Virus record (IMG/VR): IMGVR_UViG_3300024255_001563 | Coordinates: 32,001-96,000 of that record | Direction: 5' to 3' (one strand) | DNA length: 64,000 nt | DNA from: a virus | Taxonomy: Duplodnaviria > Caudoviricetes | Shown here: positions 9,869 through 58,959 of the stretch, in pieces | How positions within the stretch are numbered: position 1 is the first letter of the stretch | How the letters are laid out: each line of letters begins with the position of its first letter | Made by a program: the position numbers and the translations under genes | Notes under the pieces: generated by a model | Database searches by the model: none | Seen by the model: only the letters and a program-made list of their open reading frames with translations | Told to the model about the DNA's origin: nothing

Positions 9869-9897
9869 TTGACATTTAATTTACTTTATGTTATTAT
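9869..9897 (+). promoter_or_regulatory. Sigma70-type promoter with extended -10
   Basis: TTGACA, 17-nt spacer, TGnTATTAT. Confidence 0.8.
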
Positions 9898-56858: not shown

Positions 56859-57320
56859 TTATGCGTCTTCTGTGAAATCGTCGTCATCGGTTCCAACTAA
56901 TGTGTTGTCGTCGCCAGCTTCTTCAACTTGTGCTGCACCGTCTGCTACAGATGTACTAAAGTTCCATGCTACACTTACACCATCATAAGCATTACTACCT
57001 GTTGCACTTGGTGCTGACAATGTAGCTTTACGTCCAGAAATTTTACTTACTGTGTATGTTTCTGCATCGTCCATTTTGAATGAAATAGCCATTTCGCCTT
57101 CTGCTAATGCTGCTGGTAGTTTACCAGTTGTTAGCGTACAAGTAAATAAGCCTGGTGTTTCAATTTCTTCACATACAAATTTCTTTGATGCTTTTTGCTT
57201 TACAATGTAACCTTCTTTAACTGCTGTGCCGTTATGAAAATTTACTTTAATTTCGTTGCCGCCTGCTGTAGGTCCTACGCCTGCTACACCGAATAATCGT
57301 TTGTTTAGTGGTCTTCCCAT
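56859..57320 (-). CDS. Probable virion structural protein (capsid decoration candidate)
   Basis: 153 aa; own TAAATA 57417-57422, long structured leader, AGGAGA SD; directly after the capsid gene. Confidence 0.6.
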   Translation of the reverse strand: MGRPLNKRLFGVAGVGPTAGGNEIKVNFHNGTAVKEGYIVKQKASKKFVCEEIETPGLFTCTLTTGKLPAALAEGEMAISFKMDDAETYTVSKISGRKATLSAPSATGSNAYDGVSVAWNFSTSVADGAAQVEEAGDDNTLVGTDDDDFTEDA

Positions 57321-57422
57321 TTTTTTTCTCCTATAAAAAGTAGTCCTATGCCCGTTCTATGAGCTACGCTGCGGGTACAGCATAAGTCCGCCTTGCGGCA
57401 CACTATCTGACATATGTATTTA
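57321..57422 (-). promoter_or_regulatory. Late promoter plus a ~90-nt structured 5' leader
   Basis: GCC-GCAA-GGC GNRA hairpin; ATGCTG/CAGCGT stem whose loop CCCG can pair with downstream CGGG. Confidence 0.5.
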
Positions 57423-57431
57423 TCAAATAAG

Positions 57432-57464
57432 AAAAAAGCCCGACACAGTTAAGTATCGAGCTTT
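57432..57464 (-). terminator. Rho-independent terminator of the putative ncRNA
   Basis: 13-bp stem that pairs fully only on the minus strand (two G-U pairs), followed by a U tract. Confidence 0.8.
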
Positions 57465-57680
57465 TAATAATAAGGGTGATAGGTTGGACTTTGAGAATAC
57501 CAACAACCTCCTAGTAGCTCTCGCTAAATTCGGAGGAGCCTAGCATCGGATAGTTACTTCCAAAAACATATCTTTGTATCTCTACAATCATATGCTGCCA
57601 CTACAGCTACTAGCCAAGTTGTGTCACTACGCAACACCGTTCCTTGCACTATCTAACTTAGACCGTCGCCTAACTTATGT
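57432..57680 (-). ncRNA. Candidate structured non-coding RNA of about 245 nt, family not recognised
   Basis: Bounded by a sigma70 promoter and a terminator; GC-richer than the flanks; multiple hairpins, two capped by GAGA tetraloops; no SD-led ORF. Confidence 0.55.
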
Positions 57681-57684
57681 AACT

Positions 57685-57712
57685 AATATAACATCATTAC
57701 AAACAATGTCAA
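57685..57712 (-). promoter_or_regulatory. Sigma70-type promoter with extended -10
   Basis: TTGACA 57712-57707, 16-nt spacer, TGnTATATT; shares GGTTGACAtt...TGtTAT with the promoter at 9869. Confidence 0.7.
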
Positions 57713-57734
57713 CCACTTTTTTTAAAAAAGTCAT

Positions 57735-57761
57735 AAAAAAAGGCCCCGTAGGGCCTTTTTT
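57735..57761 (-). terminator. Rho-independent terminator after the major capsid gene
   Basis: AAAAAAGGCCC-TACG-GGGCCTTTTTT; cUACGg tetraloop; symmetric A/T tracts. Confidence 0.9.
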
Positions 57762-57780
57762 CGTTATTATAAAAATAATA

Positions 57781-58959
57781 TTAGCTAAAGCTTACATTAC
57801 CATTAGTAATTGCAACGTTAGCTAAGTAATCAGCTGCGTTACCAAGCGATGATGCTGTGTTGTTTAACTCAACATATCCGTAACGTGTCATGAATGACAC
57901 TGTTGGTTCGAATGATGTTGGGTCAAGCACAACGCCTGAGCTCATTAGTGGGATGTATGGGCAATAGAATGCTGCTGCATCTGATTCACTTGAACCTTTG
58001 TAGCCAACTAGTACTGCTGTACCGTCACCTGCATATGTGTCTACATAGACACGCATTGCGTTATTTAATGTACCAACCATTTTAGTGTTAGTTGGTGCTT
58101 CAAATGTACCCTCTGTTGTACGTGCAAATGCGCTTGTAGTAGCACTTTGTAGAATTGTTAGCGCAAATGGGCTAACGACTGCAAAGTTACCTGCGCCTCT
58201 GCGTGTACGCTGAGCGATTAGGTTTGATGCACGGTTGATTTGTACTGCAAGTGCTGCATGCTCGTCACCAACAAATGTTGCTGTACCAGACACGCCCGCT
58301 TGGTCGTATGTTTCAACTGCTGCACCACTTAGTGTGCGTAAAGAAGCTAATACTTCTTGATCGATTTCAGCAGTAATCTCTTGTGCTAGAGCAGCCATAA
58401 TTTCTGCTTCAACATCAATACCATGTTGGGACTGAGCATCTTGAGCTGATTCAAACGTCCAACGAGCACTCAACTTACGAGTTTTCGCTTCAACAGTTTG
58501 CTTCAAGATCTGAATGCTTAGTTGATTACCAGCTGCACCTTCAAGAGCTGCTGTACTGTTTGCTGCACCAGGGTTTGCTTCATCACCTGAATATGATGTT
58601 GCAATTTTGAATGGGCTTAGAGCCTCTTCACCTGCTGTTGCACCGTTGGCGCCCGCATTCACAGTGTCGCTATAACGAACACGTAGAGTGTGGATTTGAC
58701 CAACTGGACCAGTCATAGGCTGAACACCTACGATTTCATTAGCAATGACTGTTGGCATTACACGTCTGATCACTGGTAGGATCACACGATTTAGAGTTGC
58801 TACGTTACCGGCAGAAGTAGCGCCTGCAGTGGCTGTCTCTGACAAATACTTACGTGTATTTTCCAAAGTTGCGGCCATTACAGATTTCTTGTTGCCATTT
58901 AGGCCTTCAAGAAGTGCTGTCTTCGTATCCTGCCAGCGACTTTCTAGTAGTTCTGACAT
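57781..58959 (-). CDS. gp23: Major capsid protein
   Basis: PVIRRVMP..IANEIVGVQPMTGP.G, KQTVEAKTRKL.ARW..E.AQD...HG.D.EAE, FYCPYIPL, TRYG. Confidence 0.97.
   Translation of the reverse strand: MSELLESRWQDTKTALLEGLNGNKKSVMAATLENTRKYLSETATAGATSAGNVATLNRVILPVIRRVMPTVIANEIVGVQPMTGPVGQIHTLRVRYSDTVNAGANGATAGEEALSPFKIATSYSGDEANPGAANSTAALEGAAGNQLSIQILKQTVEAKTRKLSARWTFESAQDAQSQHGIDVEAEIMAALAQEITAEIDQEVLASLRTLSGAAVETYDQAGVSGTATFVGDEHAALAVQINRASNLIAQRTRRGAGNFAVVSPFALTILQSATTSAFARTTEGTFEAPTNTKMVGTLNNAMRVYVDTYAGDGTAVLVGYKGSSESDAAAFYCPYIPLMSSGVVLDPTSFEPTVSFMTRYGYVELNNTASSLGNAADYLANVAITNGNVSFS

Follow-up and report, generated by a model that had tools for sequence, protein, structure and literature searches.

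The whole 64-kb stretch of DNA analyzed here (the window) belongs to a virus record of 200 kb with an estimated completeness of 57%. Its major capsid protein shares ~70% identity with capsid proteins from jumbo myophages of 285 to 470 kb, among them Vibrio phage 2.275.O, Sinorhizobium phage Phosso, GAP32, and PA5oct. A structured RNA with its own promoter and terminator lies between the capsid gene and a conserved gene of 153 amino acids (aa). All features around the RNA, including the neighboring genes, are on the minus strand; in the order of transcription they are as follows.

57781 to 58959, minus strand: major capsid protein gene (Gp23 family), the upstream neighbor (Pfam PF07068, E = 1e-99; PHROG 138, major head protein).
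57735 to 57762, minus strand: intrinsic terminator of the capsid transcript, a 12-bp GC-rich hairpin with a T-run.
57685 to 57712, minus strand: sigma70-type promoter, 11 of 12 matches, with the TG extension (-35 box TTGACA, 57712 to 57707; 16-nt spacer with the TG extension; -10 box TATATT, 57690 to 57685).
57476 to 57680, minus strand: core of a manA-type RNA, helices P1 to P9, ~205 nt (Rfam RF01745 match, 204 bits with our own model R1, and covariation).
57432 to 57465, minus strand: the RNA's own intrinsic terminator, AAAAGCUCGAUAC-UUAACU-GUGUCGGGC-UUUUUU (hairpin at 57465 to 57434, then the U-run).
57417 to 57424, minus strand: late promoter box GATAAATA of the gene that follows, located 3′ of the terminator in 37 of 40 copies.
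57318 to 57402, minus strand: freshwater-2 RNA motif (RF02980; 66.9 bits; gathering score, 49.9), a neighbor outside the manA unit.
56859 to 57320, minus strand: conserved 153-aa gene, the downstream neighbor, an open reading frame (ORF) with 341 relatives in viral contigs.

The original prediction, made from the sequence of the window, described a TTGACA-16-TGnTATATT promoter right after the capsid terminator and a stand-alone noncoding RNA ending at a terminator, and each of these elements was found. An A-rich tract lies upstream of the promoter. Two extended -10 sigma70-type sites occur in the window, and this one is the only one on the gene-bearing strand; the other match is at 9869 to 9897 on the plus strand (TTGACA-15-TGTTATTAT). 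Transcription would begin at about 57680 to 57678 (ACAUAA). The minimum-free-energy fold of the resulting 247-nt RNA has an energy of -77.8 kcal/mol, with a z score of -3.43 relative to shuffled sequences.

Beyond the terminator, the GATAAATA box, which matches the T4-type late promoter, is one of 13 on this strand of the window; those checked (before the 153-aa gene and before a 1,612-aa gene) lie just upstream of a gene start. The freshwater-2 motif begins a few bases after the late box and includes the Shine-Dalgarno sequence (SD) and ATG of the 153-aa gene, and on both counts it has the appearance of a late-transcript leader. Relatives retain it ahead of the 153-aa gene whether they carry manA or lack it. 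A literature search on freshwater-2 returned nothing relevant, and the 153-aa protein had no match in PHROG or Pfam.

The RNA was originally thought to match no tRNA, tmRNA, RNase P, 6S, or ribozyme consensus, and an Rfam search was proposed as a check on its novelty. That search removed the novelty: the manA model (RF01745) matched positions 57673 to 57473 over its full length (model positions 1 to 192 of 192) with 42.5 bits and an E value of 1.3e-9 when 601 nt were searched, and the same single match was obtained over the whole 200,843-bp virus record (E = 1e-10). The model found no match in 14 control genomes. The window copy falls below the manA gathering cutoff of 55.2 bits, an operational cutoff rather than a structural feature, and for this reason the match is visible in E-value mode only; Rfam gathering mode returned freshwater-2 alone in the window.

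Viral contigs supplied relatives of both the capsid gene and the 153-aa gene. Of 160 loci, 67 carried a homologous RNA in the corresponding position, as identified by a profile of window-type copies. In loci L111, L140, L027, and L049, the RNA that lies between the capsid and 153-aa genes as in the window scored 55.7 to 61.1 bits, above the manA gathering score, and the window copy is only ~47% identical to these cutoff-passing copies, which accounts for its low score. An nhmmer profile built from window-type copies found the cutoff-passing copies at the same coordinates. Model R1, in which the manA structure was mapped onto the window sequence and which was built from 36 distinct copies, scored both types at E < 1e-40. 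A blastn search with the 501-nt region as query found no match among 50,697 phage records. Since copies at the same locus pass the cutoff and the low score of the window copy is explained by divergence, we regard the RNA as a diverged manA member and not as a new family; that it is a manA homologue is close to certain.

The RNA adopts the manA architecture, with a P1 hairpin, a closing stem P2, P3, and a P4 junction bearing P5, P6, and P7, followed by P8 and P9. The elements of this fold that are discussed below, together with an ORF inside the RNA, are located as follows.

57658 to 57673, minus strand: P1 hairpin UUAGGC-GACG-GUCUAA, loop L1 GACG at 57667 to 57664; 6 of 6 pairs change on both sides.
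57597 to 57607, minus strand: P5 (GCU/GGC), loop L5 GUAGU at 57604 to 57600; UAGU of L5 is complementary to ACUA of L7.
57566 to 57595, minus strand: long P6 hairpin, GNRA loop L6 GAGA at 57582 to 57579; 11 of 11 pairs change on both sides.
57546 to 57563, minus strand: P7 (UUGGA/UCCGA), loop L7 AGUAACUA at 57558 to 57551, the partner of L5.
57507 to 57536, minus strand: P8 (CCUCC..UAGC/GCUA..GGAGG), apical loop L8 GAGA at 57522 to 57519; every P8a pair changes on both sides.
57483 to 57504, minus strand: P9 (GUUGG/CCAAC), 12-nt loop L9 UAUUCUCAAAGU at 57499 to 57488; 100% of cells paired.
57511 to 57591, minus strand: 26-codon ORF, not a gene; its start is lost or its frame is cut to 0 to 12 aa in most relatives.

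Covariation among related regions downstream of gp23, which had been named as a test of the RNA, was extensive. The model-fitted alignment A5 comprised 40 copies, 39 of them distinct; 86.5% of its cells were paired, compared with 66.6% after shuffling and ~40% with partners slid, and 48 of 58 pairs had changed on both sides. Because A5 is fitted to the model, the same count was made on A2, a MAFFT alignment blind to structure, in which 85.5% of cells were paired and 46 of 59 pairs had changed on both sides. Many G-U pairs are compatible with the minus strand only. Comparison of these sequences thus strongly supports a nine-helix manA fold across the 39 distinct copies. L1 is GACG in 23 of the 40 copies and L6 is a GNRA tetraloop in 39, in line with the GNRA loops noted originally. 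A terminal helix P0 (AUAAG at 57678 to 57674 with CUUAU at 57474 to 57470) reaches 6 bp in the cutoff-passing copies; we treat it as tentative, since ACAUAA also precedes a tRNA in locus L084 and may belong to the promoter.

Six stems had been drawn from the window sequence alone. UUAGGC/GUCUAA corresponds to P1, GUGUUGC/GUGACAC to P3b, and the two GAGA hairpins to P6 and P8; the comparative data support all four. GCUG/CAGC is not retained in relatives, where the supported P5 is GCU/GGC. For GGUUG/CAACC a helix does exist at that place, but the pairing was a few bases out of register with the supported P9.

The original prediction also proposed that a perfect 9-bp complement, CUAGUAGCU/AGCUACUAG, competes with the local hairpins and makes the RNA a conformational switch. 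The complement does exist in the window (57613 to 57605 and 57519 to 57511) and is perfect in the 8 closest copies (the window and 7 near-identical ones), but the best match falls to 3 to 6 bp in all other copies, in which P4, P5, and P8 covary; as a family-wide feature the switch was rejected. With the RNA matching manA, a new family built around such a switch is very improbable. Still less credible, to the point of being negligible, is a reading in which the stretch encodes a 26-aa peptide. The ATG-started ORF at 57591 to 57511 is present and lacks an SD, as had been stated, but at least 15 copies have lost its start codon, its length varies from 0 to 38 aa, and substitutions track base pairing, not codons. 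The codon-level conservation that was named as an argument against a noncoding RNA was not seen.

Both ends of the transcription unit are kept in relatives. A sequence of the form TTGAC(A/C/T)-16/17-TGnTAnnnT lies a few bases 5′ of the RNA in 39 of 40 copies, and a hairpin followed by a U-run lies within 75 nt of its 3′ side in 37 of 40, as anticipated for a separate unit inside a late structural gene cluster. These 3′ hairpins have 30 different stem sequences, and some are UUCG-loop terminators of the textbook type. The complementarity of the terminator arm to its own RNA (-8.19 kcal/mol) was no greater than that to other RNAs (-8.00 ± 0.27 kcal/mol; P = 0.24), and the fold and the terminator coexist in minimum-free-energy structures; both results indicate a plain terminator, not an expression platform. 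We looked across the copies for a covarying antiterminator or another alternative pairing for the terminator and found none.

These observations bear on the possibility that the RNA is a riboswitch-type leader, in which the manA fold would be the aptamer, the terminator the expression platform, and read-through into the 153-aa late gene the output. The family was proposed as a riboswitch candidate and has the Rfam type Cis-reg (PMC2864571); the order of promoter, structured RNA, terminator, and gene is the classical layout; and in other contexts described below (Mosig and gp32-like) the RNA is directly before a gene. At this locus, however, an A/U linker of 10 to 15 nt parts the terminator from the fold, with no overlap between them, and the many stem versions without a covarying antiterminator, like the textbook UUCG-loop terminators in some copies, are not what a regulatory terminator would be expected to show. 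The window RNA is also not in a 5′ UTR position: its own terminator and then a separate late promoter box precede the next gene, which retains its freshwater-2 leader whether or not manA is present. Finally, the same slot between promoter and terminator is also occupied by tRNA genes. We consider the leader reading quite unlikely here.

An alternative that we rate slightly lower again is that read-through from the capsid gene produces the RNA as a 3′ extension of the capsid mRNA, where it would stabilize or localize the late capsid transcript instead of being a gene of its own. Contigs from RNA libraries of four marine studies (X1, X3, X5, and X6) cover positions 57476 to 57722, promoter included; they come without ends, strand, or usable depth. 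One of them (X3 record 11) extends from the 3′ end of the capsid gene into the manA region, and further contigs continue through the promoter, as read-through would predict. RNA-library contigs may, however, contain DNA, and they do not define transcript ends. Against a 3′ extension, a strong terminator closes the capsid gene, 39 of 40 copies keep, base for base, a promoter that read-through would make needless, and in about one-third of further contigs the module is found away from capsid genes.

A conserved promoter and terminator bracket the RNA, as in a free-standing small RNA gene. Their retention, the late box that follows, the variable slot shared with tRNA genes, and the independence of freshwater-2 from manA argue for an independent stable-RNA cassette, and at this locus the RNA is probably a free-standing transcript.

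The spacer between the capsid and 153-aa genes varies in content among relatives. Of 87 loci with both genes, 48 carry manA, and the others have an empty spacer (145 to 213 nt), small ORFs, or tRNA genes. At L084:2740-2900, a tRNA-Gly (UCC) lies under the same promoter as manA (GGTTGAC-17-TGCTATTAT), with the same ACATAA start, and is followed by a terminator. Trp, Gln, and Cys tRNAs occupy the slot at L099:2656-2884, and at L025:4499-4573 a tRNA-Gly (UCC) directly follows manA.

Other occupants of this spacer were recorded as well. Small ORFs of ~110 to 130 aa are frequent in slots without manA (L097, L102, L129, L137, L154, and L065; spacers of 425 to 467 nt). They form two families, starting MQES.. 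and MEKIK.., and the latter also occurs 3′ of manA in L140 (2600-3000) and L142, behind its own TTGACT promoter. In many relatives a glutamine riboswitch aptamer (RF01739, 42 to 58 bits) lies between the capsid gene and manA (L140:2024-2073, L128:2357-2404, and L099:2311-2358, among others); it is absent from the window. The spacer behind the capsid gene is a collecting point for structured RNAs.

In the window, L105, L131, L018, and L050, the same terminator (GCTCGATACT..GTGTCGGGC) and downstream sequence flank the manA RNA. Because the versions of manA between these shared flanks are only 42 to 68% identical, this arrangement suggests that the RNA has been exchanged by recombination between conserved flanks.

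A scan for the invariant word ATAGTGCAAGGAA..AACTTG recovered 90 further viral copies, 57 of them after a capsid gene and the others elsewhere, with the promoter still present in ~80. In these other contexts, some copies are followed by a terminator and then a fresh promoter, as is seen ahead of a nucleotidyltransferase-like gene, and others lack a terminator. In Pelagibacter phage Mosig EXVC030M (MT647606.1, 108168-108375), which provides a named cultured carrier of manA, the RNA scores 124.6 bits with R1, has the same promoter, and ends 26 nt before a rubrerythrin gene with no terminator between them. T4-like marine phage contigs (L172, L173, L188, L206, L209, L238, and others) carry promoter and manA upstream of a gene of ~300 aa, labeled gp32-like (single-stranded DNA-binding protein) on the basis of its N-terminal residues and the order of genes in Mosig; a TATAAATA late box, and no terminator, lies between the two. 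What follows the RNA varies, so the conserved module consists of promoter and RNA. Where the terminator is missing, the RNA is at least physically a leader, and a leader role there is possible, which is the chief reservation about the free-standing reading.

When 185,579 representative prokaryote genomes were scanned for the pattern, 39 matches came up, about the number expected by chance; none was confirmed by R1 (best score, 15 bits), and they offered no clue to the host. RF01745 detected no manA in Vibrio phage 2.275.O or Sinorhizobium phage Phosso, the nearest cultured capsid relatives, but the controls were equally silent, so that this negative carries little weight.

Two loop pairs of the RNA are complementary across copies. 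At the central position of the pairing between L5 (UAGU in the window) and L7 (ACUA), 18 copies have A-U, 16 have G-C, and 3 have G-U, and 89% of cells in the L5/L7 interaction are paired. In the window, L8 GAGAG is complementary to UUCUC in L9. The corresponding L8/L9 pairs of other copies include AUGA/UCAU, AGGAU/AUCCU, CAGA/UCUG, UGAU/AUCA, AAUGAU/AUCAUU, UGGU/ACCA, and GGUA/UACC, so that at least 8 distinct sequence pairs preserve the complementarity. Since indels in L9 prevent a column-wise pair count, we compared cognate with permuted duplexes: over 23 loop classes the mean duplex energy was -3.08 kcal/mol for cognate loops and -1.25 ± 0.28 kcal/mol for permuted ones, and none of 20,000 permutations was as good. 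Sequence complementarity of this kind reads alike within and between molecules; an intermolecular reading of L5/L7 and L8/L9 would follow from analogy with known manA assemblies.

Those assemblies were described by cryo-EM in a 2026 preprint as pentamers, decamers, and a 60-mer cage formed in vitro, and no biological context was offered (bioRxiv 10.64898/2026.07.01.735769). The helices were named P1 to P9 in the same order as here. The 60-mer of A0F1 assembles via L5-L7′, L8-L9′, and L1-L1′ contacts, and Photobacterium manA decamers are held by L5-L7′ and L3-L8′ contacts and by the binding of the GNRA loop L6 to its receptor (L6-P6′) (10.64898/2026.07.01.735769). The oligomers were obtained in vitro only, at high RNA concentration and 10 mM Mg, with family members other than the window copy. 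By analogy, copies of the window RNA would join through L5-L7 and L8-L9 base pairing, aided by the GNRA loop L6, and the RNA is probably self-assembling. Whether it oligomerizes in vivo we consider an even bet.

Taken together, these data favor, with a probability of roughly 0.7, a free-standing small RNA gene of an uncultured marine jumbo myophage that encodes a diverged manA member and acts more probably as a stable RNA particle than in the control of a neighboring gene. In this model, host RNA polymerase would start at the near-consensus extended -10 sigma70 promoter, presumably early in infection, and transcribe ~245 nt up to the plain intrinsic terminator; the product would then act as a stable RNA particle, possibly with a cellular role for its assembly, rather than controlling the gene next to it. 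manA, a riboswitch candidate from 2010 onward, has remained an orphan, and the present locus with its ~70 relatives adds biological context. The literature that we found treats manA as a putative cis-regulator or describes its assembly in vitro; in it we found no description of a promoter-terminator cassette or of this phage group. The conserved promoter and terminator, the slot shared with tRNA genes, and the covarying cage loops lead us to adopt a trans-acting stable RNA, in place of a cis-regulator, as the working model.

A wider proposal, which we put forward as speculation and think somewhat unlikely, is that manA RNAs in general are not riboswitches but free-standing phage genes for self-assembling RNA particles that act in trans during infection. 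If this were true, the promoter-RNA-terminator module would be a mobile cassette swapped at hot spots like tRNA genes, the variable L8/L9 and L5/L7 pairs would be assembly-specificity codes under selection, and the particle would act in trans, for example by sequestering host factors or by scaffolding.

Compared with the manA motif as first described (RF01745; Weinberg et al. 2010, PMC2864571), the window RNA has the same nine helices in the same order and the same marine phage origin. It also shares the junction words (AGUG after P2, GAA, AACUU, and UUG..GGU..UCC..CCUAU), the GNRA L6, and the L5/L7 complementarity. It differs in its lengthened P6, in the L5/L7 pair (UAGU/ACUA instead of UGGU/ACCA), in the GAGA/UCUC pairing of L8/L9, and in lying between its own promoter and terminator instead of in a 5′ UTR.

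With respect to the structurally characterized assemblies, the window RNA combines features of both sets. Counterparts of the A0F1 contacts (L5-L7′, L8-L9′, and the GACG loop of L1) are recognizable in its sequence. With the Photobacterium constructs it shares the P1 word UUAGGCGACGG, the long P6 with its GNRA loop, and an L9 ending in AAAGUCC. A Photobacterium-type L3-L8′ contact is unlikely in the window RNA, because its L3 has only 3 nt.

Phage tRNA cassettes and morons resemble this locus in being promoter-to-terminator units between late genes, and in relatives the same promoter indeed drives a tRNA-Gly or a Trp-Gln-Cys tRNA set; the product in the window, however, is no tRNA and lacks any anticodon-type function. 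GOLLD and ROOL (RF01998 and RF03087, respectively) are structured phage and prophage RNAs of unknown function that are often located beside tRNA genes and for which homo-oligomeric cages have been reported. Both exceed manA several-fold in length, are unrelated to it in sequence and fold, and belong to different phage groups.
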